64,000 bases of DNA from Isurus oxyrinchus (GCA_026770705.1 JANJGN010000071.1:930001-994000), one strand, 5' to 3'; positions 5,675 to 44,858 are shown, counted from the stretch's first letter. The notes: generated by a model not told the origin, from the letters alone. Numbers and translations are program-made.

Positions 5675-5714
5675 ATGATCGGGAAATCTTACTTCCTCCT
5701 GTCACTTCTCCAAG
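5675..5714 (+). CDS. Gene B: signal-peptide exon (exon starts at 5633)
   Basis: Acceptor tttctctttcag|; ATG gives MIGKSYFLLSLLQ; phase-1 donor CAAG|gtaata. Identical coding sequence at 25941-25980. Confidence 0.85.
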
Positions 5715-10383: not shown

Positions 10384-10384
10384 G

Positions 10385-11309: not shown

Positions 11310-11712
11310 ATAGGAACCACTGCCTTAGACACTGAGGATCTAGGACAGCTAGGCCAATTCATGATTCATGATGGTGATAATGGGGGAATTCTGAAGGCTC
11401 TAAATCCATTGTCCTACATTGTAAATCAGCAGTGAACTCACTTCAATCAGTGCGTCTTGTAAACACTGTGTTGGGTGGCAGACTGACTTCACTAAATAGG
11501 TTCCTGAGGGCCATGAGCCAATGTAGAATGAACTTGTCCACTCCTGTGTCCAGAATTCTCTTCGATCTGTGGTAAAACCTTGGGGCATTCATTGTGTGAC
11601 CTGTGGATTATCCAGACTGCAGCCACTGTGCCCCAGTGATGGAGGGGGTGGATATTGAGTATAGTGGATTGAGAAAACATTCAGAGTTAAATATTGATAT
11701 TTCTCTCCGTAG

Positions 11713-12087
11713 TTGGACTATCACAAGTGTGGAAAGTCAACACTCCACGAGAGGTGACAGCGCAGGAAGGTTCGTGTGTACAGATTCCATGTAATTACAG
11801 TTATCCATCATATTTAGTAGCGAGATCACCAGTCGGAATCTGGTATATGAGAAGGAATTGGGAAACATGGAATGAACGGTCTATAGCCTTTCACTCCAAG
11901 GATCATAATCGCGAGTTACCACAGTTCCACCATCGGACCCGGCTGTCTGGAGACCTGAAAGATGGTGACTGTTCCCTGATTATAAACAATGTCAGATGGG
12001 AAGATGCAGGATATTATTTATTCAGAACAGATTTTGACAGCAGGAATAGATACAACGACCGTCCTGAAACCCAGCTTCATGTTTCTG
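11713..12087 (+). CDS. Gene B: V-set sialic-acid-binding domain exon V1
   Basis: Acceptor ctccgtag|, donor TCTG|gtaagt. Siglec hallmarks: GSCVQIPC, GDLKDGDCSL, no F-strand Cys, and the essential-Arg motif YLFR. Confidence 0.9.
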
Positions 12088-12229
12088 GTAAGTGCTGTGT
12101 TATAATTACTCAACAATTCACATCCAACACTCAATGGGAAATAATAGTGTTTGATTTGCTTGTTTTTTGGCCGTGTTAACCAGCGTCACTATTTTTAATG
12201 ATTTGTCTATTTCTGCTCCCAGATCCATG

Positions 12230-13740
12230 AGCTTATTGTGTGTGATTGGATCCACATCATAGCTGTAACGTAAACCGAGCTGAGGGGTGATGACACCTCC
12301 CCCCTGAGTGAAGTGTCTCCTCCCCACTACACCTTCCACCCCTCACACTGTCCGTGTAAACCCCCGTCCCATCTCCAGCCTCTCTTTCCCCTCCAAAGTC
12401 CTTGAACGTGTTTCCATCTCCCGAATCCGTTCCCATCTTTCCCGGATCTCCATGTTTGAATCCCTCCAATCAGGTTCCCACCCCAGCCACTGTGCTGAAA
12501 CAGCTCTTATCAAGGTCACAAATGGCATCCTGTGTGACTGTGACAAAGGTCAACTTTCCCTCCTCGTCCTTCTCGATCTGTCTGCAGCCTTTGACATGCT
12601 CGACCACACCATCCTCCTCCAACACCTCTCCACTGTCGTCCAGCTGGGTGGGACTGCTCTCCCCTGGCTCCATTCTTATCCATCTCATCGTAGTCAGAGA
12701 ATCACTTGCAATGGCTTTGCAGCATCATCTGAACAGTGTTAGTTTTCACCTGTCCACTGAGGATCCCCAGCTCTACCTCACCACCACCTCTCTCGACTCC
12801 TCCACTGCTGCTAAATTATCAGGCTGCTTATCCGACGTCCAGTACTGGATGGGCAGAAATTCCCTCCAATTAAATATTGGAAAGACTGAAGCCATTGCCT
12901 TCATTCCCCGCTCCAAACTCTGTTCCCTCGCTACCAACTCCATTCCTCTCCCTGACAGCTCTCTGAGATTGAAGCCAATCTGTTCACAGCTTTGTTGTCC
13001 CATTTGATCCTGAGATGAGCTTCCGGCCTCATATCTGCGCCCTCACTAACACTGTCTATTTCCACCTCCGTAACATCGCACGACATCACCCTGTCTCAGC
13101 TCATCTGCTGCTGAAACCCTCATCCACGCCTTCATTACCTCCAGACTCGACTGTTCCAACACACGCTCTACACTCCATAAAGTTGAGGCCATCCAAAACT
13201 GCTGACCATGTCCTTACTCACACCAAGTCCCATTCCCTTATCACCAGCTCTGCTCGATGACCGAGACTGGCTCTTGGTCAAGCAAAGTCTCAATGTCACA
13301 ATTTTCATCTTTGTTTCCTCACTATCTCTGTAATCTCCTCGTCCTCCTCCAGTACCTACAACCATCCCATTCTCTGTAACCTCTTCAAGCCTCTGCTGCT
13401 TCCCTATATCTGTAAATTCATCCTGCACAAAAAACCTACCAAACTCTGCAACCTCCTCCAGCCACTACAACCCTCCCTAGCTCTGCGAACTCCTCCATAC
13501 CCTACACTCTCCCAATCTCTCTTAAATTTTCCAGCCTCTACAACCCTCCCTATCTCTGTAACTCCTCCAATCACTACAACCCTCCCTATCTCTGTAACCT
13601 CCTCCAGCCCCTCCAACCCTCTGAGGTCTCTGTGCTCATCCAATTCCAGCCTCTTTACCATCCCCCGATCCCATCACTGCAATATCGGCGGCCATGCCTT
13701 CAGGTGCCTGGGGCCCGAGCTCTGTAATACCCGGCCTCAA
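12230..13740 (+). mobile_element. L2-clade LINE RT fragments and 3' tail
   Basis: RPISSLSFPSKVLER...AETALIKV...LDLSAAFD and LQLNIGKTE; frameshifted. Confidence 0.8.
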
Positions 13741-14529
13741 CCCCTCTCCATCACTCTCTCTCACTCTCTCTATCTCTCTCTCTCTCTATCTCTATCTCTC
13801 TCTCTCTCACTATCCATTTCATCCCCCTTTTAAGATTCTCCATAACACCGAACTCTTCTGGTCAGCTGTCGCTAATATCTCCACACGTGTCTGGGTGACA
13901 TTCTTTGTTTTATGACGCTCCTGTGTAGCACCTTGGGGTGATTTGTCATGTTAAAGTTGTTGTGTAAACAAAGTTGTTGTCCTTTGACCCTCGACCCCAG
14001 ATCGAGTCTTATTTTAGAGGGAATGTACAACCTCCTTAGATTTCTGACCAAAATGTCATTTGATTATTTTTACTGAGCGAATGCCAAGCCCCGATACCGA
14101 GCGAGAGCCTCCTCATTTGCCGAGTTTAGGGTGATGAGTCAGCCCCTTAGACCGTAGAGGGGATTCTCCTCGGTAATGTGCAGCCTTGTTTGTGTCTCAC
14201 CACAAGCGCATGAGGGGTTTGTACAGAGGCTGCAGCGCTGGAGGGAGTCTGCACAGGGGTCCTGGCCTGTCCTGAGCCGGTTTTAGCAAGGACCACTCTG
14301 GTCTTGGCAGCTGAAAGCCAGCCATTGGACAGACGGGGCCTGTCACAAGGAGCCTGTTAGTCACTCCCCCCAGTGTCTCCTGTGCTCGGATCCAGACCAT
14401 GTTGGCTGGTGGATCTGGCTCAGGAAGGGTCCTCCCCATGGGACCCCCAGATGGAAGGTGGGTCGAGCGGGTCAGTCACTTGCATGTTTATTCTGCAGCT
14501 TTAATATTTTAAGAAGGTAAGAATGTAGG

Positions 14530-15318
14530 AACATAAGAAATAGGGACAGGAGCAGGCCATTCAGCCCCTCGAGCCTGCTCTTGCTGATCTGGTTGTGGCC
14601 TTAACTCCATTTTCCTGCCTGTCCCCCAAACCCTTGACCCCCTTGTCGATCAAAAACCTGCCTCACTCAGCCTTGAGTCTATTCAATGGCCCAGCCTCCA
14701 CTGCTCTCTGGGGAAGAGAATTCCACAGGCTAGCGCCCCTCTGAGAGAGGAAATTCCTCCTCATCTCAGTCTTAAATGGGGGAGCCCTCATTCCGAAACT
14801 GTGCTCCCTGGTTCTAGATTCCCCCACGACGGGGAAACATCCTCCCAGCATCCACCCTGTCAAGCCCCCTCGGAATCGGATATGTTTCAATAAGGTCACC
14901 CCTCATTCTTCTAAACTCCAATGGATACAGGCCCAACCTGCTCAACATTTCCTCACAGGACAAACCCTTTAATCCCAGGAATCAGCCCAGTGAAGCTTCT
15001 CTGAACTGCCTGTACACAATGATCCTGTTACAATCTCACTAACACCCTGTGCAGCTGTTGCAAGACTTCCCTCCTTTTATACTCCATCCCTTTGCAAAAA
15101 AGGCCAACATTCCACTTGCCTTCCTCATTCCGTGGTGTTCCTGAATGCTGACTTTCTGTGATTCATGTACAAGGACACCCAGATCCCTCTGTACTGCATT
15201 CTGCAGCCTGTCTCCATTTAAATAATATTCTGTTTTTCTATTCTTCCTGCCAAAATAATTTGTTGCCATTCTCCTCAGTATTGACCATCCCCCCAATTCA
15301 GCCTCATCTGTAAATTTT
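14530..15318 (-). mobile_element. CR1 LINE 3' fragment
   Basis: Minus-strand EMRRNFLSQR..LWNSLPQRAVEA and QRDLGVLVHESQKVS. Confidence 0.8.
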
Positions 15319-15374
15319 GAGTCTAGTGGATCCACAAACCATCCAGAGATAAATATTGAGATTTCTCTCCCCAG

Positions 15375-15743
15375 TTGCACTGTCACATGAATGGAAAAGT
15401 GACACTCCACGAGAGGTGACAGCGCAGGAAGGTTCGTGTGTACAGATTCCATGTCATTACAGTTATCCATCGTGTCTGGAAAACCAACCGCGAGGTGGAG
15501 TCTGGTTTAATGACGAGAAACAGATTCCCTGGGCTCCCATTGCCTTTCACTCCAAGGATCACAGTCATGAGTTACCACGGTTCCACCATCGGACCCGGCT
15601 GTCTGGAGACCTGAAAGATGGCGACTGTTCCCTGATTATAAACAACATCAGACGGGAAGATGCAGGACCTTATTTTTTCAGAATAGAATTTGACAATGGT
15701 CCGAGCCATAACTATTACCCTGTAACCCAGCTTCACGTTTCTG
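15375..15743 (+). CDS. Gene B: second V-set exon V2
   Basis: Acceptor ctccccag|, donor TCTG|gtaagt. Contains SCVQIPC, DCSL and YFFRIE (essential Arg); open frame. Confidence 0.9.
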
Positions 15744-17054: not shown

Positions 17055-17342
17055 ATTTCACAGATAAACCCACGATATTCCCTGCTGAAATTATTGCAGG
17101 AAAGCATGTGGATGTAAGCTGCACCTTCAACACAACGTGCAATGGAACAGTCTTAACCTGGGACACTCCCACTGACGTACCTGGATCAGTCTCAAACACT
17201 GTAACTCAGCATGGTGTCACTCTGACCTATACTTCTGTTCTGACCCTGATCCCATCACTCAAACACCACGGACACACTCTCAGCTGCAGAGTGAGATATC
17301 CATCTGTTTCATCGGAGCGGACCCTCGTACTAACTGTGCTAC
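17055..17342 (+). CDS. Gene B: C2-set Ig domain 2 exon (9-nt in-frame deletion of AAP)
   Basis: DFTDKPTIFPAEIIAGKHVDVSCTFNTTCNGT-VLTW...LTVL; donor CTAC|gtaagt. Confidence 0.9.
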
Positions 17343-17519
17343 GTAAGTACAAACACCCTTCATTCTACATTAGCTGGAATAGTATCAAATGTGCACAGCA
17401 AGCTCCCACATCCTGCACTTTGTTTATAAACAAACCATTGGTGTTTAACTGGGAAAAAGTGACCCCTGACAGGCAGTACATCCTTACTACTGACTCTCCG
17501 ACAGTGCATCTTGGACTCA

Positions 17520-19250: not shown

Positions 19251-19324
19251 GTTTTATATCTTGAGTCTATGAGTTCACTGGTTGAGTAAACTCGAATTGC
19301 ATTCCTTCATATACACTTGTTAGT

Positions 19325-20239: not shown

Positions 20240-20521
20240 ACGCACCACGGAATCTCTCAATTACTTCTCCAGATATGATTAACGCTTCATCGATCAATAT
20301 AATTGAGGGGAATTCTGCAGAGATAATCTGCTCTGTCGAGAGCTTCCCAGCTTCTAACCTGATGTGGCGACATCTTAATGTCCCAATGAACAGAACAAGT
20401 TCCAACAATGAGCTGTGGTTGGTGATTCCTCACGTTACATCCAGGGATACTGGAGAATATCAGTGTGTGGCAGAGAATGAACATGGAGCAGTGGAGGGGT
20501 TCATAACCATTACTGTGGAAT
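20240..20521 (+). CDS. Gene B: Ig3 (C2/I-set) exon
   Basis: Acceptor tttttag|; APRNLSITS...IICSVESFPASNLMW...DTGEYQCVAENEHG...ITVE; donor GAAT|gtgagt. Confidence 0.9.
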
Positions 20522-22226: not shown

Positions 22227-22366
22227 ACAGTGGAGGAGAGATTCTGCACGTGATCCTGATCCTGGGAATACGAGCTGTGATATTCCTTGTGGCTGTGGTT
22301 ATCACTATCGCTGGAGTCTGTGTCTGGGAGAGACAAACAGTGAAAGGAAGTCGACAGACTGTTTAA
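22227..22366 (+). CDS. Gene B: TM + short tail exon (Arg in TM, no Tyr motifs)
   Basis: YSGGEILHVILILGIRAVIFLVAVVITIAGVCVWERQTVKGSRQTV-TAA, in frame with Ig3. AATAAA at 23347-23352. The spliced ORF is 497 aa with both V exons. Confidence 0.88.
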
Positions 22367-25940: not shown

Positions 25941-25980
25941 ATGATCGGGAAATCTTACTTCCTCCTGTCACTTCTCCAAG
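25941..25980 (+). CDS. Gene C: signal-peptide exon (exon starts at 25899)
   Basis: MIGKSYFLLSLLQ; donor CAAG|gtaata. Confidence 0.85.
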
Positions 25981-26842
25981 GTAATATCATTGTCAGCTCG
26001 GACAGATTTATGGTGAATAGTCTTTGTAAAAGAACATTCTTATGGAGCTGTGATTGGGAACCGATTCAGCAGTGAGCCAGTGTACAAACTCACACCAAGT
26101 CCCATTCACCCATCATCCCTAAACTATCTGACTCCTGGTCCTACAACATCTCAAACTTGAAATACACATCTCTTTGTTCAAATGCATCCATTGCCTCACA
26201 CTGCGTCCTTATCTCTGTAACCTCCTGCAACTCTCCCAACCAACGTCCCAGATCTCTGTGTTACTCCAATTCCGGCCTCTTGACCATCCCTCGATTCCCA
26301 TCACTCCAATACTGGCGGCCGGGCCTTCAGCTGCCTGGGGCCTGAGCTCTGGAATTCACTCCCTAAACCTCGGGGATGGAGGAGCTCAGAGGGTTTCATT
26401 TTACTGAGAATCACCACGGCCACATCACAGCTGCAGTGAGAATAGACAGAGAGTCCAGCCCTCGCACTTCCTGCACAGTTTCACCATAGCAACCACAATA
26501 AGGAAGTAAAATAACTGAAAGTTAAACCGAAGCCAAACCAGTCAGTTTAGAGAGATGAGATATTTACACAGTTTCCCTGTGTATCTTGTAGACACTGTGT
26601 TGGGTGGAAGACTGGCTTCACTAAACAGGGTCCTGAGGACCATGAGCCAATGTAGAATGAAGTTGTCCACTCCTGTGTCCAGGATTCTCTTCCCTCCATT
26701 GTGAAACCTTGGGGAGTTCCTTGTGTGTCCTGTAGATGGTCCACACTGCAGCCACTGTGCTCCAGAGATGGAGGGGGTGGATATCGAGTCTAGTGGATCT
26801 ACAAACCATCCAGAATTAAATATTTGATATTTCTCTCCTCAG

Positions 26843-27211
26843 TTGGACTGTCACAAGAGTGGAAAGGTGACACTCCACGAGAGGTGACAGCGCAGGAAGG
26901 TTCGTGTGTACAGATTCCATGTCATTACAGTTATCCAGCACATTTGGAAAACCAACCGCGAGGTGGAGTCTGGTTTAATAATGAGAAACAGATTCCCTGG
27001 GCTCCCATTGCCTTTCACTCCAAAGATCACAGTCACGAGTTACCACGGTTCCACAATCGGACCCGGCTGTCTGGAGACCTGAAAGATGGCGACTGTTCCC
27101 TGATTATAAACAACATCAGACGGGAAGATGCAGGACCTTATTTTTTCAGAATAGAATTTGACAATGGTCCGCGCTATAACTATTACCCTGTAACCCAGCT
27201 TCATGTTTCTG
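26843..27211 (+). CDS. Gene C: V-set sialic-acid-binding exon
   Basis: Acceptor ctcctcag|; SCVQIPC, DCSL, YFFRIE; donor TCTG|gtaagt. Confidence 0.92.
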
Positions 27212-28059
27212 GTAAGTGCTGTGTTATAATTACTCAACAATTCACATTCAACACTCAATGGGAAATAACACAAACTGTGACGTTTACATATTAACACAAA
27301 ACACAGCTTATTATAACACACTGTCTGATTCTCAATAGCTTCCAGTTCAGTCCTAAAGCAACGTCTAATACTCACTTTAATATCAATGATGAAAAGCATT
27401 AACTGTATTATCAGGTTATCCACTCCCATCAATCTCTCCTGTCCTGTTTAAAAGTCTGACGTATCGATAAAAGAAAGATGTACATTTCTGCAGCGCAATT
27501 TACCACCTCAGGAGGATCCAAATCCCTTCACAGCCAATGAAATTATTCCTGAATTGTAGTCACAGATGTTAAACACAGCAGGCAGTTTGTGCACAGCAAG
27601 ATCCAACAAACCACAATGTAATAAATCACCCAGATCACTGAGGAAATGAGAAGCCAGTGAACTCAAACCTCTGGTCTGATGAAGAGTCATACGGACTCGA
27701 AACGTTAACCCTGTCTTCCTCTCCACTGATACTGTCAGACCTGCTGAGTCTTTCCAGCAATTTTTGTTTTTGTTTCAGATTTCCAGCATCCGCAGTATTC
27801 TGCTTTTAACTCCAATCTCTGGTCTGAGCCTCTTCTCTCATCCAGTGTTCTCAATTCACATGTCTCGGAGTGAACATGTATTAAGCTGAGAGACAGAAAC
27901 ACTACTGCCAAAGAGCAAGAAAATCTTTCCTGATCATTGTAACCTCTCAGTTCTGATATCATCCTTGTAAAAGTGCTTTCTCTTGTTGGACTGTGATTTC
28001 TATTTGAACTGATGCTTCACATTATATTTCTCTAAAAGGATCCATTCTCTGTCTGTTAG

Positions 28060-28356
28060 ATTTCACAGATAAACCCATGATATTCCCTGCTGAAATTATT
28101 GCAGGAAAGCGTGTGGATGTAAGCTGCACCTTCAACACAACGTGCAATGGAACAGCAGCACCTGTCTTAACCTGGGACACTCCCACTGACGTACGTGGAT
28201 CAGTCTCAAACACTGTAACTCAGCATGGTGTCACTCTGACCTATACTTCTGTTCTGACCCTGATCCCATCACTCAAACACCACGGACACACACTCTGCTG
28301 CAGAGTGAGATATCCATCTGTTTCATCGGAGCGGACCCTTGTACTAACTGTACAAG
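28060..28356 (+). CDS. Gene C: C2-set Ig domain 2 exon
   Basis: DFTDKPMIFP...VSCTFNTTCNGTAAPVLTW...TLCCRV...LTVQ; donor CAAG|gtaagt. Confidence 0.9.
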
Positions 28357-28719
28357 GTAAGTACTGACACCCTTGATTCTATATTAGCTGTAATAGGATA
28401 CAATGTGCAGAGCAAGATCCCACAAACATCACTGGGTTGAAGACAAAACAGGTCCTTTTTTATTAGTGATATTGACCAGGGAGAGCTCTTCCTGTATTGA
28501 GCCTTGGGATTGTTTATGCCTACCTGATAAGGCAGAGGGGGCCAAGGTTGAACTTAAAAGACAATATAGGATAATATAAATATTGTCTTCATTGATGTCA
28601 AAGATTTTGGGGGAGATGTAGTATAAAAGTTTAATATTAACAATGTAAATAGATAGTATTTATCATCAGTTACTCAAGGTCACATGAGAATAGAACACGG
28701 AGAGAGATAGTTCTATAGA

Positions 28720-30780
28720 TACCTAGGTACATAGAAACTAGGAGCAGGATTAGGACATTCAGCCCTTCAAGCCTTCTCCGCCATTCAATATGATCAAGGC
28801 TGACCCTCTATCTCAAAGCCTTATTCCCGCTTTCTCTCCGTACCCTTTGATGCCCCTAATATCAAAATATTTATCAGTTTCTTTCTTGAATACACTCAGT
28901 GACCCGGCCTCCACAGCCTCTGTGATGGAGAATTCCACAGATTGACCACCCTCTCAGTGAAGAAATGTTTCCCTATCTCAGTCCAAAATGGCCTGCCCTG
29001 TATCCTGAGATTGTCGCCCTTGGTTTTAGACTCCCCAACCAAGGGATGCATCCTCCCTCCATCCAGTCTGTCTATCTCTGTTAGAATTTCTTACGTTTAT
29101 TCAGGTCTCCTCTCATTCTTCTAAACTCTAGTGAATACAGACCCAGTCGTACCAATTCTCCTCATACGACAGTCCTGCCGCCCCTGGTATCAGCCTAGAG
29201 AACCTTCTCTGCACTCTCTCGACGGCAAGTCTATCCTTTTTTAGGGAGGGAGACCAAAACGGCACGTAGTACCCCATGTGCAGTCTCACCAAGACCTTGT
29301 ATAACTGCAGTGAGACATCCCTACTCCTGAACACAAATCCTCTTGCAATGAAGGCCAACATACCATTTGCCTTCCGAATTACTTGCTGCACCTGCCTGTT
29401 TACTTTCATTGGCTAGTGCACAAGGACACCCAGATCCCTTTGTACATCCACATTTCCCATTATATCACCATTTAAATAATACTCTGCCTTTCTGTTTTTC
29501 ACACCAAAGCCTACAATGTCACATTCATCCACATCATCTGCCATGTGTTTGCCCACACACACAACTTGTCTAAATCGCCTTGAAGCCTCTTTGCATCCTC
29601 CTCACAGCTCACACCCTTACCCAGCGTTGTGTCATCAGAAAACCTGGAAATATTGCACTTGGCTCCCTCACCCAAGTCATTTAAATATATCGTGAATAGT
29701 TAGGTCCCAAGCACGGATCGCTGTGGTACACCACTAGTCACCGCCTGCCACTCAGATAAAGACTAATTTATTCTGACCCTCTGTTTCCTGTCTGTCGACC
29801 AATTCTCAATCCATGCCAGTAAATTACCCCCAATCCCATGGGCTTTAATGTTGCCCACTAGCCTCTTATGTGGGACCTTATCAAAAGCCTTCCTGAAATC
29901 TAAAAACACCACATCCACTGGTTATCCCTTATCTATTCCACAAGTTACATCCTCAAAATCTCCAGTAGATTAGTTAAGCATGATTTTCCTTTCATTAACC
30001 CATGCTGACTTTGTCTAATCCCATTAATGCTTTCCAAGCGTTCCGTTAGCACACCTTATATAATAGGCTCTAGCGTTTTCCCCATGTTAGACTAACTGGT
30101 CTGTAATTCTCTGATTTTTCTCTCCCTTCTATTTTAAATAGTGGAGTTACAATTGCCACCCTCCAATCTATAGGAACTGCTCCAGAGCCTATAGAATTTT
30201 GGAGAATGACCACCAGTGCTTCCAATATTTCCAGGGTCACTTCCGTTAGTCTCTGGGATGTAGATTTTCAGGCCCTGGGGACTGTTCAACCTTTAACCCA
30301 TTAATCTCTCCAGATTCATTTTTTAAAACTAATCCTGATTATCTTCAATTCCTCCCTCTCACTAGACACTTGGTTCCCTAACATTCCTGGGAAATTATTT
30401 GTGTCCTCTTTTGTGAAGACAGAACCAAAATATATGTTCAGTTCTTCTGCCATTTCTTTGTTTCTCATTAGAATTTCCCCCATTTCTGACTGCAAGGAAC
30501 CTACATCGGTCACTGCTAATCTTTCTCTCTTCACATATTTATAGAAGCTTTTACAGTCGGTTTTTACGTTCCCTGCAAGTTTACTCCCATGTTCCATTTT
30601 CCCCTTCTTGATCAATCTTTTTGTCCACTTTTGCTGAATTCTAAACTGCTCCCAATCCTCAGCATTGCCGCTTCCCCTGGCAATTTTATGTCTCCTCTCT
30701 GGATCTAATACTATCCCTAATTTCTTTTGTAATCCCTGGTTGAGCACCATTTCCTGACTTATTTTTACGCCAGACAGAAA
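28720..30780 (-). mobile_element. CR1 LINE ORF2 fragment
   Basis: KANGMLAFIARG...LYKVLVRLH...VERVQRRFSRLIPG and KSFYKYVKRER motifs. Confidence 0.85.
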
Positions 30781-30899
30781 TGGATAATTGTTGTAGCAAA
30801 TGCTTCAGCCTTATCTTTTGCCCTGATGTGCTGGGCTCCCCCTTCATTGAGGATGGGGATATTTGTGGATTCCCCTCCTCCAGTGAGCTAATTGTCCGT

Positions 30900-31880
30900 T
30901 ACCATTGGATACGAGCATTAGTGAACTGTGTTAGACCATTATCGAAAATGAAAGCCGGACTCCAGTATAGCCTCACTATGATGGATATGACAAATCGATT
31001 TCCAGAGACCATCCCTTTAGGAACAATTACAGCTAAAGTAGTAATAGGGAAGTTAACCCAATTTTTTACCCATTATGGATTACTGCTGGAGATCCAGTCA
31101 GATCAAGGTTCCATCTCTATGTCTTAAAATTTTCCGAACATAATGAGTAATTTGGGTATAAAACAGTTAAAGTCCACAGCATATCATCCATAGACACGGG
31201 GATCTTTAGAGAGGGACCAACAAACCCTCAAAACAATGATTGAAGCTATTGTCATGAACTCCCCATGACTGGGACAAAGGACTGGATTTTCTTGTATTTC
31301 CCACACGAGATTCACCAACTGAATCGGCAGGTTTTAGTCTTTTTGGAATAACTTATGGACACGAGATAAGAGGCTGTCTGAAATACATCAAAGAAAGATA
31401 TTCTGGACAGAGGGATGAATCCTCTATTTCAGATGATGTGTCCATGTTTCAGGAACGGCTCATAGGAGCCTCCAAAGTGGCACAAGAACATCTTATAGTT
31501 TCTCAAACAGAAATGAAGGAATGGGGCAGACAGGCAAGCTGTGACCCGAACATCACAACCAGGGGGATGACGTGTTAGTATCATTGCCTTGGCAGGGGGA
31601 GCCTCTGAAAGCGCGGTTCAGTGGTCCCCACAAGGTAATTAGGAGGGTTGGTCAAGTAAATTATTTGATAGACACCCCAGATTGTAGAATAAAGAATCAG
31701 CTGTGACACATCAATATGTTAAAACGATACCATCGTAGGGAGGGAGGTAAAAAGGAGCAGGTATTTCATTTCCAACCAGATTCTGCATACATTACAGAAA
31801 GGTTAATGCAGCAATAAAACCAGATTCCTACCCAATCCCCCGTTTAGAAGATGGTATTGACGGGGTTGGCAGTGCCATGT
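30900..31880 (+). mobile_element. Gypsy-type integrase fragment
   Basis: LTMMDMTNRFPETIPL...YGLLLEIQSDQGS, STAYHP and a GPY/F-like PLKARFSGPHKV; contains stops and frameshifts. Confidence 0.8.
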
Positions 31881-31902
31881 TCCTTACTGAGATAAATTTG
31901 TT

Positions 31903-31938
31903 GGCAGTGGGGGGTGTTCGTGACCATCAGTGTGGAAG
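31903..31938 (+). pseudogene. Remnant 3' end of an additional Ig3 exon copy
   Basis: gcagtggggggtgttcgtgaccatcagtgtggaa resembles gcagtggaggggttcataaccatcactgtggaa. It is followed by the same CA-repeat and intron block (32481-32600 ~ 33300-33420) that follows Ig3a. Confidence 0.6.
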
Positions 31939-32890
31939 GGTTAGGTTTACAGGTTACACAGACCACACACGCACCAACAGACACACACACACATGNNNNN
32001 NNNNNNNNNNNNNNNNNNNNNNNNNNNNNNNNNNNNNNNNNNNNNNNNNNNNNNNNNNNNNNNNNNNNNNNNNNNNNNNNNNNNNNNNNNNNNNNNNNNN
32101 NNNNNNNNNNNNNNNNNNNNNNNNNNNNNNNNNNNNNNNNNNNNNNNNNNNNNNNNNNNCACACGCANNNNNNNNNNNNNNNNNNNNNNNNNNNNNNNNN
32201 NNNNNNNNNNNNNNNNNNNNNNNNNNNNNNNNNNNNNNNNNNNNNNNNNNNNNNNNNNNNNNNNNNNNNNNNNNNNNNNNNNNNNNNNNNNNNNNNNNNN
32301 NNNNNNNNNNNNNNNNNNNNNNNNNNNNNNNNNNNNNNNNNNNNNNNNNNNNNNNNNNNNNNNNNNNNNNNNNNNNNNNNNNNNNNNNNNNNNNNNNNNN
32401 NNNNNNNNNNNNNNNNNNNNNNNNNNNNNNNNNNNNNNNNNNNNNNNNNNNNNNNNNNNNNNNNNNNNNNNNNNNNNNNTCAGTGCTGCACTGGAGTCTC
32501 GGTGTCAGCTCCGATTCTGTGCTGAAGGAAGGTAAACTCCAGATCAACAAGACCCTGAATTGGATGAGCAACCTCCTTAACAGAGAATTGTAGATTTACC
32601 CCTCAGTGCTCCATCGATCAAATACAATTCATTGCCTGTCCAGCCCTTGGGGACATTCTGAGGATGTGAAAGGGAGTTTCTTTAAATCTGGATGGGCAGG
32701 GTCTCTGGTGGGAGAATGCTCCTGCAGTGTGACAGTTTACATAGGCAGTGCCCATTGTAAATGTGACATAGGAACTTATCTTGAGGGAAGGTGCCTAGAA
32801 ATGCATACAGACATCAGATACAGAGACATGATGCATGGAGTCTTCCTGTGCACTATGTTTGCTCACGTTAAAATCTTTATATGTTTTTAG

Positions 32891-33172
32891 ATGCACCACG
32901 GAATCTCTCAATCAATTCTCTTGATATGATTAACGCTTCATGGATCAATATAATTGAGGGGAATTCTGCAGTGATAATCTGCTCTGTCGAGAGCTTCCCA
33001 GCTTCTAACCTGACGTGGCGACATCTTAATGTCCCAATGAACAGAACAAGTTCCAACAATGAGCTGTGGTTGGTGATTCCTCACGTTACATCCAAGGACA
33101 CTGGAGACTATCAGTGTGTGGCAGAGAATGAACATGGAGCAGTGGAGGGATTCATAACCATCACTGTGGAAT
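32891..33172 (+). CDS. Gene C: Ig3a exon
   Basis: APRNLSINSLDMINASW...DTGDYQCVAENEHG...ITVE; canonical phase-1 splice sites. Confidence 0.9.
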
Positions 33173-33194
33173 GTGAGTTAATGCAAACTTCAAC

Positions 33195-33250
<56 letters not shown>

Positions 33251-34076
33251 CACACACAAACACACATGCACACACACGTGTCAGCTCCCTCTCCTCTCTC
33301 AGTGCTGCACTCGAGTCTCGGTAGCAGCTCTGATTCTGTGTTGAAGGAAGGTAAACTCCAGATCATCAAGACACTGAATTGGATGGAGCAACCTCCTGAA
33401 CAGTGAATTGTAGGTTTATCACCCAATACCCCATTATTCCAAAGCAATTCCTCCATGGTGAAATCTCCGTGAACATCCTGATCATGTGAAAGACACTTTC
33501 TTTTCTTCTAGCCCGACAGTGTCTCCTCTGGTGGAAGGCTGTAATTACAGCGTGACAGTTTACATATCCACACGCAGCAAGAGCTGAGCAACACTCAGCT
33601 TGGGCTGAGAAATGACAAGTAATGTTCACACCACACAAGCACCAGGCAGTGATCATCTCCAACAAGAGAGAATCTAACCATCTCCCCTTGATATTCAATC
33701 ACTTCACCATCGCTGAATCCCCCACGATCAACATCCTGGGGGATGTTAACCAAACACCGAACTGGACCGGCCATAAATACTGTGGCTACAGGAGCCGGTC
33801 AGAGGCTGGGAATTCTGTGGGGGTGCAAAACTCACCACCACCTCCTCAAGGGCAATTAGGGATGGGTAATAAATGCTGGTCTAGATAGATACATCCACTT
33901 CCCATGAATATGCAAAAAGGAACACACTGGCAGTGTCTGTTACAAATGGTGACATAGAAAATCATAATGGGGAAAGAAGCCTTGACATGCACATAGACAC
34001 CAGATGGAGAGAGATGATACCTGGAGTCTTGCTGTGCACTGTGTTTGCTCACAATGAAACTTTTATTTGTATTTAG

Positions 34077-34358
34077 ATGCACCACGGAACCCATCAATTA
34101 CTTCTCTTGATATGATTAACGCTTCATCGATCAATATAATTGAGGGGAATTCTGCAGTGATAATCTGCTCTGTCGAGAGTTTCCCAGCTTCTAACCTGAC
34201 GTGGCGACATCTTAATGTCCCAATGAACAGAACAAGTTCCAACAATGAGCTGTGGTTGGTGATTCCTCACGTTACATCCAGGGACACTGGAGACTATCAG
34301 TGTGTGGCAGAGAATGAACATGGAGCAGTGGAGGGGTTCATAACCATCACTGTGGAAT
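34077..34358 (+). CDS. Gene C: Ig3b exon (tandem duplicate of Ig3a)
   Basis: APRNPSITSLDMINASS...ITVE; canonical splice sites. Confidence 0.9.
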
Positions 34359-34369
34359 GTGAGTGTGGA

Positions 34370-34685
34370 GATACATTTGTTTGTTTGTTGTCTCCGTGGT
34401 CTCCATGGAGCCATTGGGATCGTGTTGTTTTTAATCCAGTTTTCTTCAATCCTCGCTCAGTCCACGTTATCCACACACCCAATTTTTCCTCTCCCTTTCT
34501 GTTTTTGCTCTCAGTTTCTCCTTCAATGGTTGTCAGGACAAGGCTGTCAGGTCTTCGTTTCCAATCTCCGTACTTGACGACCTTTCTCTCTCTAACTGTC
34601 CTGAACAACCCTTTTAATTGCTGAACGTCTCCTCTTGATCTAAGCCACTCATTGGTCTTTCTGTCCATCCAGCTGATTCTGAGCA
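34370..34685 (-). mobile_element. RTE-like LINE 3' fragment
   Basis: LRISWMDRKTNEW...LVLTTIEG motif. Confidence 0.55.
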
Positions 34686-35900
34686 TCTGGCAGCATCTGT
34701 GGAGAGAAAGACAGGGTTAGCGTTTGGAGTCCGTAAGACTCCTCTTCAGAGCTAAAGGGAAGTAGACATGTGGTGAAATATATCCTGTCTAAGGCGGGGC
34801 GATGGGACAGGTGGAGCTGGATAGAAAACCAGCGATAGGTGGAGGCAATGGAGAGATTGTGGAAGATGTCATAAACAAAAGGTCAATGGGTTGTTAATAG
34901 TGGTGGTATTGGATAAAGGAGGTGCTAATGGTGACATTAAGCAGAGTGTGATAATGGGCGGACCAGGGTAAGCACTCTGGAAAGAGACAGATGGCCCTCG
35001 TGGGGGTGTGGAAGGGGGAGGGGACAGTGGAGGGAATAAAGATCGAAAATAGACTAAAATCTGCGGTTTAACACAATCAATAAAATGGAAATGAATTTCA
35101 AATAATAATAATAAAAATAAGTGGAAAACAGTCAACAAATAAAACAATTAAAATGAATATATAAAAAAGGGTTCAAAAAGCAGTGAAGATCGAGGAGAGA
35201 GTTCATGATCTGAAATTGTTGAACTCAATATTCAGTCGGGAAGGCTGTAAAGTGCCAGGTCGGAAGATGAGGTGCTGTTCCTCCAGTTTGTGTTGGGCTT
35301 CACTGGAACAATGCAGCAGGCCAAGGACGGACATGTGGGCATGAGAGCAGGGTGGGGTGTTAAAATGGCAAGTGACAGGGAGGTCTGGGTCATGCTTGTG
35401 GACAGACCGAAGGTGTTCATCAGAGCGATCACCCAGTCTGTGTTTGGTCTGTCCCATGTAGAGGAGACCACATTGGGAGCAGTGAATGCAGTAGATTAAA
35501 TTGAAGGAAGTCTGCATGAAGCGCTGCTTCACCTGGAAGGAGTGTTTGGGTCATTGGACAGTGAGGGGGGAGGAAGTAAAGGGGCAGGTGTTGCACCTTC
35601 TGTAAATACATGGGAAGATGTCATCGGAGAGGGTTGAGGTGCTAGGGGTGATGGAGGAGTGGACCAGGGTGTCCTCGAGGGAATGATCCCTGTGGAATGC
35701 CAACGGGGTGGGGGTGGGGGGGGGCGGATGTGGTGAAGGGAAGATGTGTTTGGTGGTGGCATCATGCTGGAGTTGGCGGAAATGGCGGAGAATGATCCTT
35801 TGAATGAGGAGGCTGGTGGGGTGAAAAGTGAAGACAGGAGGGACCCTTACATTGCTCTGGGAGGGAGAGGAATTTGCAAGGGGGGATGCGCGGGAGATAC
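34685..35900 (-). mobile_element. Penelope-like element fragment (GIY-YIG endonuclease)
   Basis: NLIYCIHCSQCGLLYMGQTKHRLGDR..EHLRSV...KLEEQHLIF. Confidence 0.85.
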
Positions 35901-36226
35901 ACAATCTCCAACTCTTTCTCAACCATTAAGATGCTCCTTAAAACCATTAAGACACACCGTTAAAACCTCCTGCTTTCAGCGAGCTTTTGCTCACCTTTCC
36001 TAATATCTCCTAATGTGACTCAGGGTCAGATTTTGTCCGAAGGAGGTGAGAAATGATGGAGGGAATTCCAGAGGTTAGGGTCCAGGCAGCTTAAGGCACG
36101 GCCGCCAATGGTGGAGAGATGGGAATGGGAGAATGTCCAAGAGTTCAGAATTGGAGGAGCGCAGAGATTTCGGAGAGCTGTGGGGTGTGGGGATTACCTG
36201 CTGATTGTTCTCTGTCTTTGTTCCAG

Positions 36227-36502
36227 ATCCCCCACAGGAGACGATGGTGTCCATCAGCAGATCCTCAGGTGGGATAAGAGAGGGAAGCAATATCACATTA
36301 ACCTGCTCCAGTGAAAGTGTCCCACCGATATCTCATTACACCTGGTTCAGGATCGAGGGGAATACCAGCACCCAGTTAAACACAAGTAGCCGCACTCTCT
36401 CCTTCACTCCTGTAACACGGGAGAATGATGCAGGTTTCTACTGCACAGCGAGGAACCCAGTGGGTAACAGCACCTCCAACATCACCCACCTGAACGTACA
36501 AT
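36227..36502 (+). CDS. Gene C: Ig4 exon (CD22/sialoadhesin-like C2 repeat)
   Basis: YPPQETMVSIS...IREGSNITLTCSSESVPPISHYTWF...DAGFYCTARNPVG...LNVQ; splice sites ttccag| and CAAT|gtaagc. Confidence 0.9.
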
Positions 36503-36854
36503 GTAAGCATTTTACTCCCCCTGTCTCTGCTTAAAACTCAAACACTTTCTGTCTGAGGGCAGCTTCCTTGCTGTGGTTTAGCATAACTAGCATCACCTCC
36601 CTGCTTTTTTCACCCTGCGCCTCTCCGAGATACATAAGGAGATATTAGAACAGGGACTGAAAGCTCAGAGAAAGAGGCCAGATTTTAAGGAGTGTCTGAA
36701 ACGAGGAGAGAGATAGAAATGGAGAGGTTTACGGAGGGAATTCCAGAGCTCGGGGCCCAGGCAGCTGAAGGCACGGCCGCCAATGGTGGAGCGATAGGAA
36801 TCGGGGGATGGTCAAGAGGCCGGAATTGGAGGAACGCAGAGACCTCGGAGGGAT

Positions 36855-37740
36855 GTAGATGCTGGAGGAGGTTACAGAGATAGGGAGTGTTGTGGGGTCT
36901 GGAGGAGGTTACAGAGATAGGGAGGGTTGTGGGGTCTGGAGGAGGTTACAGAGATAGGGAGGGTTGTGATGGCTGGAGGAGGTAACAGAGATAGGGAGGG
37001 TTATAGGGGCTGGAGGAGGTAACAGAGATAGGGAGGGTTGTAGATGCTGGAGGAGGTAACAGAGATAGGGAGGGTTGTGGGGTCTGGAGGAGGTTACAGA
37101 GATAGGGAGGGTTGTAGGGGCTGGAGGAGGTTACAGAGATAGGGAGGGTTATAGGGGCAGGAGGAGGTAACAGAGATAGGGAGGGTTATAGGGGCTGGAG
37201 GAGGTAACAGAGATAGGGAGGGTTGTGGGGTCTGGAGGAGGTAACAGAGATAGGGAGGGTTGTGGGGTCTGGAGGAGGTTACAGAGATAGGGAGGGTTGT
37301 GATGGCTGGAGGAGGTAACAGAGATAGGGAGGGTTATAGGGGCTGGAGGAGGTAACAGAGATAGGGAGGGTTGTAGATGCTGGAGGAGGTAACAGAGATA
37401 GGGAGGGTTGTGGGGTCTGGAGGAGGTTACAGAGATAGGGAGGGTTGTGATGGCTGGAGGAGGTTACAGAGATAGGGAGGGGTGTAGGGGCTGGAGGAGG
37501 TTACAGAGATAGGGAGGGTTGTAGGGGCTGGAGGAGGTTACAGAGATAGGGAGGGTTGTAGGGGCTGGAGGAGGTTACAGAGATAGGGAGGGTTGTGATG
37601 GCTGGAGGAGGTTACAGAGATAGGGAGGGTTGTGGGGTCTGGAGGAGGTTACAGAGATAGGGAGGGTTGTGATGGCTGGAGGAGGTTACAGAGATAGGGA
37701 GGGTTGTAGGGGCTGGAGGAGGTAACAGAGATAGGGAGGG
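36855..37740. repeat. 37-bp minisatellite (ggaggaggttacagagatagggagggttgtggggtct) within an L2-type 3' end
   Basis: About 24 tandem units; related arrays at ~13330-13630 (reverse) and ~62620-62900. Confidence 0.9.
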
Positions 37741-38050
37741 GGTAAGGAGGGATTTGAAACGATGTTAATTTTAAAATTGTGGCATTGTCGGACCGGGAGC
37801 CAGTGTAGCTCAGTGACCAACAAGGAGTGATGTGTGAACGGGACTCGGTGTGAGTTAGGACATGGGGACAGCAGAGTTTGGGATGAGCTGATGTTTACGG
37901 AGAATGGAAGATGGGAGGTCGGGCAGGAGAGTGTTGGGATAGTCGAGTGCGGAGGTAACAAAGGCAGGAATGAGTGTTTCAGTGTTAAGATTCTATCTTA
38001 CGCTCTAACTTTGCTATGACGTTGTCTCATTGTTGTCCGTCCTTCCTCAG

Positions 38051-38344
38051 ATAAGCCGGAGATTTCCCAGCAGTCGGAGTGCACTCGAAGGTCAGAGGGG
38101 GTCACCTGTGTCTGTGTGGCCACCTCCAACCCACCCGGAGACCTCACCTGGCACCTGCCCAGTGCCAACATCAGTGGTAACCAAACACACGGAGGTTTTG
38201 TGTCGTGGCAGGTCAGAGATGGGCATCTGGTGACTGGTTCCCTCACCCTGATGAGACCCCAGGATGAGGGGGGAGTGATTGCATCCTGCTCGGTTCAAAA
38301 CCCACATGGGGAAGCCATGTTCAAGGTGAATCTGTGGGTCAAAG
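38051..38344 (+). CDS. Gene C: membrane-proximal Ig5 exon (MAG-domain-5/CD33-related type)
   Basis: YKPEISQQSECTRRSEGVTCVCVATSNPPGDLTW...IASCSVQNPHG...LWVK. The C-x8-CxC...SNP pattern is typical of the last Siglec domain. Confidence 0.88.
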
Positions 38345-39228
38345 GTGAGAGACTCGCTCAGGATCGATCTCCACTCAGCTGGATTGATCCCTAAACTCGA
38401 GAATTCCCTCCCTCAACCTCTCCACCTCTCTCTCTACCTCCTCTAAGATGCTCTTTACAACTGACCCCTTTGACCAAGCTTTGAATCACCTGACCTCATG
38501 TGACAATGGCAACACTTGGTCAAATTGGAGCCAGGCCGTTCAGGGGGTGATGTCAGGAAGCACTTCTTCACACAAAGGGGAGTGGAAATCTGGAACCCTC
38601 TCCCCCAGATAAGCTGCTTCATTGGGTGCAAGACAGAAAGCTTTGACAAAATGTCCTTTCTCAGCAATACTCAGGTTCTCCTCCCAAACGACGAAATATT
38701 ATAAATAAACATTACATAGATTACATCGAGAAACATTTTATATAAATGTTACATAGATTACATTGATAAATATTATATATAAATGTTACATAGATTACGT
38801 TGAGAAACGCAACAGCTGATTTGTGCAGAGCAAGATCCCACAAACAACAGCGTGAAAATGAGGTGATAATTGATTATTTTAGTGAGGTTAGTTGATACAT
38901 ATATATAGAAATTAAAGATATAATTACACATTTAGTGAGGGAAACCTGTCCATTTTAACAGGTCTGGGTGTGTATGTGACTCCAGTCTCAGACACCAACA
39001 TGGTTAACTCTTACCTGCCCTCTGAACTGGTCTCCCAGTTTGGGACAAACCAGTGGTTCAGGAGGAAGACCCCCCACCACCTTCTCAAGGGGAAACTAGG
39101 GATGGACAATAAATGTCAGCATTGCCCGAGAATGAGTATTTAAACACTGAGTGAGTGTATCGCTTCTCGAGATACATCGGAGCATCATTGTAAACCTGTA
39201 GTGCAGTAATTAATGGCTGTTTTTACAG

Positions 39229-39325
39229 GTAGAGACTCCAGTAAATGGACAGTAGGATTGTTCACGGCTGGGATCATGTTGAGTGTTTTCCTGGCTGGAA
39301 TCTTCATCTTCATCTGTGTGAGAAA
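39229..39325 (+). CDS. Gene C: neutral transmembrane exon
   Basis: Acceptor ttttacag|; GRDSSKWTVGLFTAGIMLSVFLAGIFIFICVRK; donor AGAAA|gtaagt. Confidence 0.88.
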
Positions 39326-40047
39326 GTAAGTCTGAAGATTTAACTTGATTTTAATCTAAACATTTGCTTAGGACTAATTGGACAGTTTTTACAAAGGGCC
39401 AGCACAGGCACGATGGGCTGAGTGGCTTCCTCCTGAGCTGTGAGATTTTAAATTCTTTCATCGAATGTGACTGTCATTGGCATGGCCAATACTAATTGCC
39501 CATTCCCAATTGCCCCTTGAGAAAGAGGTGGTGAGCTGCCTTCTTGACCCGCTGCAGTCCATGTGGTGTAGGTACACCCACAGTGCTGTTAGAGAGGGAG
39601 TTCCAGGATTTTGACCCAGCGACAGTGAAGGAACGGTGATATATTTCCAAGTCAGGATGGTGAGTGACTTGGAGGGGAACTTCCAGGTGGTGGTGTTCCC
39701 ATGTGTCTGCTGCCCTTGTCCTTCTAGATGGTAGAGGTCGTGGGTTTGGAAGGTGCTGTTGAAGGAGCCTTGCTGAGTTGCTGCAGTGCATCTTGTAGAT
39801 GGTACACACACTGCTGCCACTGTGTGTTCGTGGTGGAGGGAGTGAATGTTTAATGTGGTGGATGGGGTGTGGATCAATCGGGCTGCTTTGTCCTGGATGG
39901 TGTCAAGCTTCTTGATTCTGTGCTTTGTGCAGAAGTGATTTAAAGAGACAGTCCAGTCATTGGTGTAAGGTTACAGTGGGGTCTGTGTCTGTGCTGCACT
40001 GACTCTCTGCTATATGATAACCACAGTTTGATATTGTGTTATTGCAG

Positions 40048-40129
40048 GAGAAAGACAGCGATGGAGGAGAGAGTTTCAGGGACCAGTGACATTGCATTGA
40101 CCCCCAGTCCACTCTCTGTGAAGCACCAG
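40048..40129 (+). CDS. Gene C: cytoplasmic exon 1, module A
   Basis: Acceptor attgcag|; RKTAMEERVSGTSDIALTPSPLSVKHQ; donor CAG|gtacag; in phase with the TM exon. Confidence 0.8.
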
Positions 40130-40264
40130 GTACAGGAGCTGTTTACACTCACTCCAAAGCTTCAATCTCAGTGTGTAGACAACACGTGTCCCAGATTCCC
40201 AGCCCAGTTACCCACTGATTTGTACCTGTGGAGTCAGCAATGTTTCAGTATCATGCTGTCTCTC

Positions 40265-41018
40265 TGTTATGACACAGCAACTGGTAAAGACTGTTGTTTA
40301 AAATCCCAGAGGGAAACTTTAAACAACTGTCATAACCTATATTTCCCAGTGGAATGTTTGAGATGCAGCTCTAAATTCAGGAATAAGACCACCAGTTCTC
40401 GAGATGGTTTTATATCAAACTACATGAGCCATTTATTAATTAACACAAGTTAAACATATGCACATGGCTACAAACTAGTATTATCATAACTTTTTAACAA
40501 ATTCCCAAACTAATCTCCTCTAAGATAACCCATAGAATTTAAGCAGACACCCAGGCAAAGCATTTTCACCTCACAAATTCCAAATGAGGTTCCTTTCACT
40601 TTGGATCCTTTGCAGACAGGTGTAGGATTACAGCTGCTTTGATGTTACAAGCGTCTGCTCTGCACACACAAAACTGCTCAAGTTATACCCAGCTCTTCTC
40701 TTTGAATGTAAATTCTAATTGTATCATCAGGACCTTTGAACTCCATCCCTTCAAACAATAAATCCTCTGTCATAGTATCAATTTTATCAATAAAATAAAT
40801 GTTGATTGGTTTAAGATTTCACTCTCAGGTTTTGAATGCTCTGTTTAAAAATACAAATTTTTATGCCTCAGTTTACATCTCAAAACTACTATACATCAAA
40901 TACCCAGACTGGCTGGCTTTAATCCAATTAAAACACACACAGACACACCCACAGACTAAACCCCGATGTGAATAAAAATAATTTCCAATAACATGATATT
41001 TATTAATCGCATCATGAC
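40265..41018. mobile_element. Solo LTR-like element (paralog at ~43186-44117)
   Basis: tgttatgaca...catgaca TG/CA termini; shared by both duplicated modules. Confidence 0.55.
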
Positions 41019-41529
41019 AGTCTCTCTCTCTATCCCAACCTCCCTTTCTTTCTCTCTCTCTCTCTTTCTCTCTCTCTCATCCTCTCTCTGATTACAAGGT
41101 GCATGTTAATGAGCTTCACACCAGACACTTGAGTGCAGAATCCAACTGTCACTCACCAGAACCATTACCGAGGGAGTGCAAGACTGACAGAGGGTCAGTA
41201 CTGAGGGAGTGTTGCACTGTCGGAGGGTCAGTACTGAGGGCGAGCTGCACTGTCGGAGTGTCAGTACTGAGGGAGCGCTGCACTGTCGGAGGGTCAGTAA
41301 TGAGGGAGCGCTGCACTGTCGGAGGGTCAGTACTGAGGGAGTGCTGCACTGTCGGAGGGTCAGTCCTGAGGGAGCGTTGCACTGCCATAGGTGGTATCTT
41401 TCATATGACATGAGAGAGAGGGTTAAACCAACTGAGACACGACTGACATTAACAAGGCTGCACAATAATTTAACCCTATCAGTGCCAGTAAATGATGTGA
41501 GGATAACTTCTGTTTCGATTTCTCTGTAG

Positions 41530-41778
41530 GGTAAACAGAACGTGCTGATTACTGAGCCCCAGAACACAAAGAGAGACGCAACTGGCGAGGGGGAGACCCC
41601 AGCTCCCTGGGGTCTCTCTGAAGATGCAGTGGGAGGCGATGTTGGACATGGGAACCCTGACAAACCTGAAGAGTTTCTCTACGCCAATCCCCAAGTCTTG
41701 AGGATGTCCAGTGGTGATGGGTCTGTCCACAGGGAAGTGGAGACGGAATACGCACAGATCAGGTTCGAGCATAACTGA
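41530..41778 (+). CDS. Gene C: terminal cytoplasmic exon A (degenerate ITIM FLYANP + ITSM TEYAQI)
   Basis: Acceptor ctctgtag|; GKQNVLITEP...EEFLYANPQV...ETEYAQIRFEHN-TGA. AATAAA at 42345-42350. Confidence 0.82.
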   Translation, partial: GKQNVLITEPQNTKRDATGEGETPAPWGLSEDAVGGDVGHGNPDKPEEFLYANPQVLRMSSGDGSVHREVETEYAQIRFEHN

Positions 41779-42967
41779 ATGAGAAATGGGGAGAGTGAGT
41801 GAGGAGGTATGGGGGTGGGGGTAGTGATTGAGATTCCTGGGAACAGGAAACACCCACTGGGGGAGAGGGGGAAAGAGGGAGGAAGGGATGGAATTGGGCT
41901 GCGGTTGGTGTGGTTTGGAATGAAATGCTTCTCCAGAGAGGACTGGATGCTGAGCCATTGGGGATAGAGATTCACTGTCTTTCTCTCTCTCTCTCTCTCT
42001 CTCCCTCTCTCTCTCGCTCTCTCCCTCTCTCTCTCTCTCTCTCTCCCTGTCTCTGTCTTTCTTTCTGTGTCTGTCTCTCATTCCCTATCTCCAGCTCCTC
42101 CTTTAAGATGCCCGTTAATAACTGACTTTGTTGACTCAGCTGTTGGTCTCCTGTCCCTAATATCTCCTCATGTGCCTCAGAGTCAGGTGAAGATGTCACT
42201 AACAATCCCCAGATGAGCCTTAGGACATTTTGCTACATTGAAGGTGCTATATAAATGCAAGTGGTTGTAGTAACTCTGATCTGCTTCGATTAACAATAGA
42301 ACCACAAAGGCTCCTTCGACAGGGAGTGTGTGCAGCAGGGTCACAATAAATACATTGAGCTGTGAGATTTTTAATTCTTTCATCGAATGTGTCTGTCACT
42401 GGTGATGTCAGCATTAATGCCCATCCCTAATTGCCCTTGAGAAGGTGGTGGTGAGCTGCCTTCTTGACCCGCTGCGGTCCATGTGGTGTAGGTACACCCA
42501 CAGTGCTGTTAGAGAGGGAGTTCCAGGATTTTGACCCAGCGACAATGAAGGAACGGTGATATATTTCCAAGTCAGGATGGTGAGTGACTTGGAGGGGAAC
42601 TTCCAGGTGGTGGTGTTCCCATGTGTCTGCTGCCCTTGTCCTTCTAGATGGTAGAGTTCGTGGGTTTGGAAGGTGCTGTTGAAGGAGCCTTGCTGAGTTG
42701 CTGCAGTGCATCTTGTAGATGGTACACACACTGCTGCCACTGTGTGTTCATGGTGGAGGGAGTGAATGTTTAATGTGGGGGATGGGTTGTAGATCAATCG
42801 GGCTGCTTTGTCCTGGATGGTGTCAAGATTCTAGATTCTGTGCTTTGTGCAGAAGTGATTTAAAGAGACAGTCCAGTCATTGGTGTAAGGTTACAGTGTG
42901 CTCTATGTCTGTGCTGCACTGACTCTCTGCTATATGATAACCACAGTGTCATATTGTGTTATTGCAG

Positions 42968-43049
42968 GAGAAAGACAGCGATGGAGGAGAGAGTTTCAGG
43001 GACCAGAGACATTGCATTGACCCCCAGTTCACTCTGTGTGAAGCACCAG
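42968..43049 (+). CDS. Gene C: cytoplasmic exon 1, module B
   Basis: RKTAMEERVSGTRDIALTPSSLCVKHQ; splice sites intact. Confidence 0.75.
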
Positions 43050-44609: not shown

Positions 44610-44858
44610 GGTAAACAGAACGTGCTGATTACTGAGCCCCGGAACACAACCAGAGACACAACTAGTGAGGGGGAGACCCCAGCTCCCCGGGATCTCTCTG
44701 AAGGTCCAGTGGGAGGCGATGTTGGACATGGGAACCCCGACAATCCCGCCAAGCTTCTCTACGCCAACATCAACTTTTCAAAGCTGCCCGGCGGTGACAG
44801 GACTGTGCACAGGAGCGAGGACACGGAATACGCACAGATCAGGTTCCAGAAAAACTGA
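44610..44858 (+). CDS. Gene C: terminal cytoplasmic exon B (ITIM LLYANI + ITSM TEYAQI)
   Basis: GKQNVLITEP...KLLYANINF...DTEYAQIRFQKN-TGA; classic Siglec proximal ITIM and distal ITSM spacing. Confidence 0.82.
   Translation, partial: GKQNVLITEPRNTTRDTTSEGETPAPRDLSEGPVGGDVGHGNPDNPAKLLYANINFSKLPGGDRTVHRSEDTEYAQIRFQKN

Follow-up and report, generated by a model that had tools for sequence, protein, structure and literature searches.

The window analysed here is a 64,000-nucleotide stretch of Isurus oxyrinchus DNA (GCA_026770705.1 JANJGN010000071.1:930001-994000), and positions are counted from its first letter. Gene B has one leader exon (L) and two V-set exons (V1 and V2), followed by C-type immunoglobulin exons and a transmembrane (TM) exon; it adjoins gene C. 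B+6 and B+7 denote residues six and seven past the B-strand cysteine.

5675..5714, plus strand: leader exon of gene B, 40 nt (13 codons plus 1 nt), GT donor; the sole leader 5' of V1 and V2
11713..12087, plus strand: V1 exon, first-type V-set domain, 375 nt, AG/GT; codons for A' Cys at 11775, B Cys at 11790, E Cys at 11970 and Arg at 12024, with Tyr at B+7
12088..15374, plus strand: V1-V2 intron, 3,287 nt, without a leader; contains repeat-derived sequence
15375..15743, plus strand: V2 exon, downstream-type V-set domain, 369 nt, AG/GT; codons for A' Cys at 15437, B Cys at 15452, E Cys at 15626 and Arg at 15680
15473..15475, plus strand: extra BC-loop Cys codon (TGT) of V2, 7 residues past the B-strand Cys
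17055..17342, plus strand: C2a exon, with a Cys at 17138 (B+6)
20240..20521, plus strand: C2b Ig exon; family contigs either join C2a to C2b or skip C2b
22227..22366, plus strand: transmembrane and short-tail exon, with an intramembrane Arg at 22271, a stop codon and no tyrosine motif
25941..44857, plus strand: gene C, with one V exon (26843-27211), further Ig exons, an uncharged TM segment and tails with Tyr motifs

All exons of gene B have canonical splice sites. A sequence-only reading of the window had described a single leader followed by two intact V exons of phase 1, each encoding the Siglec arginine; coordinates, splice sites and Arg codons agree with this description, and V1 and V2 start with VGLSQ and VALSH as claimed. 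The joined frames are open and encode 374 aa (L-V1), 372 aa (L-V2) and 497 aa (L-V1-V2), which are the three possible isoforms listed in that reading. Of 122 aligned residues, V1 and V2 share 81. Pfam V-set and Ig_CD22 match both domains and C2-set_2 matches C2a; the best PDB sequences for V1 are sialoadhesin, Siglec-5, MAG, Siglec-10 and CD33. In the alignment, the V1 Arg stands opposite Arg97 of the sialoadhesin chain, and the V2 Arg falls in the same column. The Siglec identity proposed earlier is supported by Pfam, PDB relatives and the Arg column alike. Gene B is also a Siglec by layout (N-terminal V-set, then C-type Ig domains, TM and tail), and its sequence contains the Siglec cysteine set: a B-E pair, an A' Cys and a domain-2 partner Cys. 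It encodes a Siglec-type receptor, for which Arg-dependent sialic-acid binding is predicted.

The tail is of the activating type, as had been suggested: the TM segment carries an Arg, the tail has no Tyr, and a charged TM residue with no ITIM is the sequence signature of an activating Siglec. Judged by these features, gene B resembles a paired, adaptor-coupled Siglec; coupling to an ITAM adaptor of the DAP12 or FcRgamma type would run through the TM Arg. Gene B is unusual among activating-type genes in having an intact C2b. Most such genes, as in gene A (572-724) and its paralogues, have a 5'-truncated C2b, and C2a is joined directly to TM in contigs. Read-through of either V donor meets its first stop after about 27-30 codons (12088-12180; 15744-15826), so intron retention would yield a secreted V form.

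Gene C is likely an inhibitory member of the family. Its last exons are duplicated (41539-41775 and 44608-44857), with two Tyr motifs each (LYANP/EYAQI; LYANI/EYAQI), and are possibly alternative tails. A divergent V-set-like frame is found at 59129-59440; its Pfam V-set match (E 3.6e-5) is below the curated cut-off, it has no Arg at the usual place and it stops early. It may be the damaged exon of a different Siglec-like subfamily.

A leader profile that detects 47 leaders on a 1.064 Mb control finds no second leader in 16 of 16 V-V introns, gene B's included (antisense noise only, E 2.6-6). The absence of a second leader between V1 and V2, stated in the sequence-only reading, is borne out by this search, and a hidden leader driving V2 is rejected.

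The Siglec-like expansion in this genome is very large (contigs C52, C71, C121, C150, C189 and others). Activating-type and inhibitory-type tails are mixed, and each gene has 0 to about 14 further Ig exons. Genome-wide pattern counts give 461 leaders (at most one mismatch), 821 V donors and 538 C2a acceptors (at most two mismatches each), with 0 control hits; these counts may include both haplotypes. Some of the counted copies may be allelic; one copy of the B-C gene pair, for instance, matches it at 99.6% identity over 23.6 kb. In 1.064 Mb of the window's contig there are 39 V-bearing units with 55 full V exons; 26 units have one V exon, 10 have two and 3 have three. The two-V layout is thus not unique to gene B among paralogues of the cluster (13/39 units are multi-V), and about a third of the locally mapped V-bearing units have two or three V exons, against a single-V norm for Siglecs. 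Longer arrays, with downstream copies about 2.3 kb apart, are found at chosen loci:

C52:1871385-1887042 (L109-L111): seven intact V exons behind one leader, downstream copies near-identical
C52:3108914-3122281 (L106-L108): six intact V exons behind one leader, downstream copies near-identical

Such arrays likely vary in length from allele to allele.

Two or more V domains are also carried by 31 of 74 database relatives, which span lamniform, carcharhiniform, orectolobiform and saw sharks as well as rays; the closest named relatives are from white shark and basking shark. The multi-V layout is already implicit in automatic annotations. It was considered as a speciality of activating genes and this was rejected: it occurs in 8/16 activating-type and also in 4/17 inhibitory-type genes (P 0.16). 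Literature searches, covering mostly open-access text, listed no paper on shark multi-V Siglecs, and the papers searched describe neither the layout nor the cysteine; a whale-shark genome paper mentions Siglecs once in the accessible part of its text.

Downstream V exons are marked by a cysteine at B+7. In the first sample it is present in 16/16 V exons that follow a V, 0/13 first V exons and 4/26 single V exons. A second sample of 600 kb from two other contigs, fetched independently as a fresh test, gives 13/14 after a V and 0/23 elsewhere, one frameshifted exon being unreadable. Pooled, the counts are 29/30 after a V and 4/62 for others; because V copies are related by descent, they are not independent cases, and Fisher values overstate their independence. 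Among database models from sharks and rays, the cysteine occurs in 38/49 domains after a V and 1/114 others (12 domains unreadable), the sole exception among the 114 being a 5'-truncated model. Ten other residues are found at this position in first and single V domains, while downstream V domains have Cys across shark orders, including the middle V domains of arrays of three to seven. The single V of gene C has His. Genome-wide, 268 Cys-type V motifs compare with 283 surplus V exons (821 V donors minus 538 C2a acceptors), a rough comparison in which mismatch limits differ between counts.

There are a number of exceptions. Downstream V exons at C52:669979 and C121:697703 are without the B+7 Cys, and two ray models lack it in two of three downstream V domains each. 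In these models (P0010, P0116) only V3 of the four V domains has it; V2 and V4 have a different extra Cys, five residues past the C-strand Trp. Conversely, two of 19 intact single-V genes carry the B+7 Cys with no upstream V. An origin of these genes by deletion of V1 finds no support: the similarity of their leader-V introns to V-V introns extends over about 60 nt at most, as in other singles, and gene conversion is therefore the likelier source of their Cys.

First and downstream V domains also differ in divergence. Identity is 93% for downstream and 78% for first V domains, with pN/pS of 0.42 and 0.78, respectively; several downstream domains are identical within the six- and seven-V arrays. 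Pairwise counts give no signal of positive selection (loop pN/pS at most 0.82). In the first sample, each of the 15 intact downstream V exons keeps the Arg; 5/13 first V exons have lost it in each of the two samples. An EPS start in place of GLS is found in 18/30 downstream V exons and 0/63 others, with 164 EPS starts genome-wide. Signal-peptide cleavage context is governed by the -3/-1 rule; by this rule, an EPS start would harm cleavage behind a leader and suits an internal position. The V2 of gene B is not of the EPS type, and its VALSH start retains a usable cleavage context.

In Siglecs, the A' Cys of each V domain pairs with a Cys in the BC loop of the domain behind it. An inter-domain disulfide of this kind, C37 (domain 1) to C165 (domain 2), is described for MAG in a section of PMC5150538. 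The C2a B+6 Cys of gene B aligns with the second Cys of MAG Ig2. The extra Cys of V2 sits in the same BC loop as the Siglec domain-2 Cys, but at B+7 rather than B+6. The ectodomain has 12 cysteines in the V1+V2 form, 9 in the V2-only form and 8 in the V1-only form (L-V1-C2a); the even number in this last form counts against an argument from cysteine parity. All 12 cysteines of the 497-aa form could pair, as 35-172, 40-100, 160-290, 165-223, 284-339 and 388-433. The extra Cys at 15473..15475 would then be the partner of the V1 A' Cys (C35-C172), and the C2a Cys at 17138 probably that of the V2 A' Cys (C160-C290).

A structure model was made for a basking-shark relative (P0012, XP_078389734.1) from a 68-row alignment, with a mean pLDDT of 74, mostly 80-96 in the V domains. 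Superposed on domains 1-2 of Siglec-10, the predicted V1-V2 pair fits at 3.8 A across 208-210 residues; the same pair gives about 5 A for CD33 and Siglec-5 and 6-7 A for MAG, compared with 11-19 A for two-domain antibody and PD-L1 rows. The model may lean on solved Siglecs. As annotated, P0012 has no C2 domain, and its V1-V2 runs straight into the TM exon. For a V-V-C2 relative, a fold predicted from its sequence alone had a pLDDT of 30.7 and was set aside.

Contigs mapped on 5500-22600, from four runs of one sample in one study and of guessed RNA status, contain the V-to-C2a joint 15742-17054 (GT..AG) in 4/4 runs, the C2a-to-C2b joint in 2/4 and C2a-to-TM in 4/4; paralogues map to the region too and repeats crowd the table. 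Neither a V1-V2 joint nor any joint at the leader or V1 is among the 15 of 662 joints listed. Database models are automatic, and one seven-V model resembles merged genes. White-shark XP_041037141.1 is modelled as L-V1-V2-C2a-TM(Arg); its Arg-bearing tail is that of gene B, and the two V1 domains are 85% identical. Another white-shark locus has L-V1-V2 isoforms (XP_041037226-8) and an L-V2 isoform 123 aa shorter (XP_041037230.1). Among 50 models listed, none joins a first-type V directly to C2a, and none of the white-shark models listed skips V2.

The best explanation, with a probability of about 0.74, is that V1 and V2 are spliced in series into one 497-aa chain in which V2 is disulfide-stapled to V1. 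It is favoured because the B+7 Cys marks V exons that follow a V and lies at the Siglec domain-2 staple position, and because downstream V domains are nearly uniform and white-shark models join V1 to V2. V1 would form a variable outer head. V2 would be a conserved, stackable second unit which, with its Arg kept, may add reach or a second sialic-acid site; its acceptor Cys would staple V1 to V2 (C35-C172) just as V2 would be stapled to C2a (C160-C290). Skipping of V1 is plausible as a minor isoform, which would leave one free thiol. The 497-aa form was merely one listed option in the sequence-only reading and is now the likeliest main product. The Siglec identity, tail type, likeness to Siglec-12 and isoform options of that reading stand, while its two proposed explanations, cassette choice and recent fusion, do not fare well.

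It is unlikely that V1 and V2 are joined while the extra Cys does something else, for example linking two chains, with the V1 A' Cys free or paired elsewhere. In favour of this reading, the Cys is offset by one residue from that of C2a, it can occur in an intact single-V gene (2/19), and a disulfide-linked Siglec-E dimer is known from a passage in PMC6829431. However, the Cys is almost restricted to V exons after a V, including the middle V of three- to seven-V arrays, and the modelled V1-V2 packing resembles Siglec domains 1-2.

The sequence-only reading had proposed a cassette arrangement, in which a transcript uses either V1 or V2 and so chooses its ligand specificity. Mutually exclusive cassettes of the Dscam type have one alternative exon per transcript, a frame or steric barrier, diverse alternatives, and RNA pairing between docking sites and a selector. 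Here, both exons have phase 1/1 boundaries, canonical splice sites and starts of the leader type, and V1 is skipped in one white-shark model. V1 is bracketed by inverted repeat pairs 32-39 nt long (5893-5959 with 13579-13646; 6568-6606 with 14543-14581); they are among 19 inverted pairs of 20-39 nt, counted without a shuffle control, the longest of which lie in repeat-derived sequence. Against cassettes, downstream V exons are nearly identical and therefore offer little choice. Each exon is a multiple of 3, which keeps double inclusion in frame, and 3.3 kb of intron lies between them; no obstacle of frame or of steric hindrance is therefore visible. The models listed contain no first-type V-C2a join, a V2-only form leaves a free Cys whose partner exists only with V1 upstream, and EPS starts with their lost cleavage context fit an internal position. 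Cassette choice is consequently disfavoured and appears quite improbable.

The other proposal of that reading was a fusion of two tandem genes by deletion; a recent fusion of this kind, with V1 as a skipped or neutral remnant, is very improbable. The cluster is rich in deletions and truncated copies, one two-V gene type (1.2 kb spacing, Cys-less second V) resembles a hybrid, and Arg is lost in 5/13 first V domains per sample. Yet first V exons are intact in 13/13 and 13/13 cases in the two unbiased samples (26/26), compared with 19/26 and 4/9 singles (23/35); one stop-bearing first V was found, in a chosen locus. The 16 V-V introns show no leader remnant, and the multi-V layout extends across sharks and rays. 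In a quick tree of 152 rows, with database single-V domains subsampled, V1 falls in a clade of 20 members (17 of them first V domains; SH-aLRT 100). A recent fusion is unlikely because this first-V lineage is common to white and basking sharks. The layout may have originated by ancient exon duplication or by ancient fusion.

The serial, stapled reading of gene B can be extended, tentatively, to the whole family. The acceptor Cys could define an elasmobranch stackable Siglec V module that chains V domains into rigid stapled rods of 2-7 units, each keeping its Arg. The chain would be multivalent and variable in length, with a fast-changing head that often drops Arg to read other ligands, and would be used across hundreds of paired receptors, activating as well as inhibitory. 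This is possible rather than probable. If the staple is true, it shows how a terminal ligand-binding domain became internal and repeatable; it also makes testable the binding of sialic acid by internal V domains, and any benefit of a longer chain for reaching past ligands on the receptor's own cell.

The white-shark models have the same leader, V1-V2-C2a order and V2 Cys as gene B; XP_041037141.1 also has the same Arg-bearing TM and tail. They differ in being automatic models with names assigned by similarity.

Among mammalian receptors, Siglec-5/14 and Siglec-11/16 have near-identical ectodomains on ITIM-bearing and charged-TM receptors, according to part of one review (PMC13358205); similarly, gene B adjoins the inhibitory-type gene C. 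Mammals have two such pairs; the shark genome yields 461 matches for leaders, 821 for V donors and 538 for C2a acceptors, which may include both haplotypes. MAG, CD33, Siglec-5 and Siglec-10 share with gene B the V-set fold, A' Cys, B-E disulfide, F-strand Arg and BC-loop Cys of domain 2. In these receptors the partner Cys is in the C-type domain 2; in shark gene B, a V domain carries one too.

Siglecs have one V-set domain with Siglec-12 as the sole exception, according to sections of three reviews (PMC7876704, PMC6829431, PMC13358205), the first two of which agree with the earlier reading on Siglec-12 as the two-V case. No mammalian Siglec-12 sequence is among the matches listed in database searches. 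Of the known receptors, Siglec-12 comes nearest in layout: like gene B, it has two N-terminal V-set domains before C2 (PMC7876704, PMC6829431 and PMC6288428, in the portions available), and an alternatively spliced shorter form is mentioned in this material. Siglec-12 is a single gene which recruits SHP-2, and its human form is without both Arg. Gene B has no inhibitory SHP-recruiting tail (its TM is charged and there is no Tyr motif). The shark family differs from Siglec-12 in having 2-7 V exons family-wide, activating- and inhibitory-type tails, downstream V domains that keep their Arg, and a V2 with an acceptor Cys.
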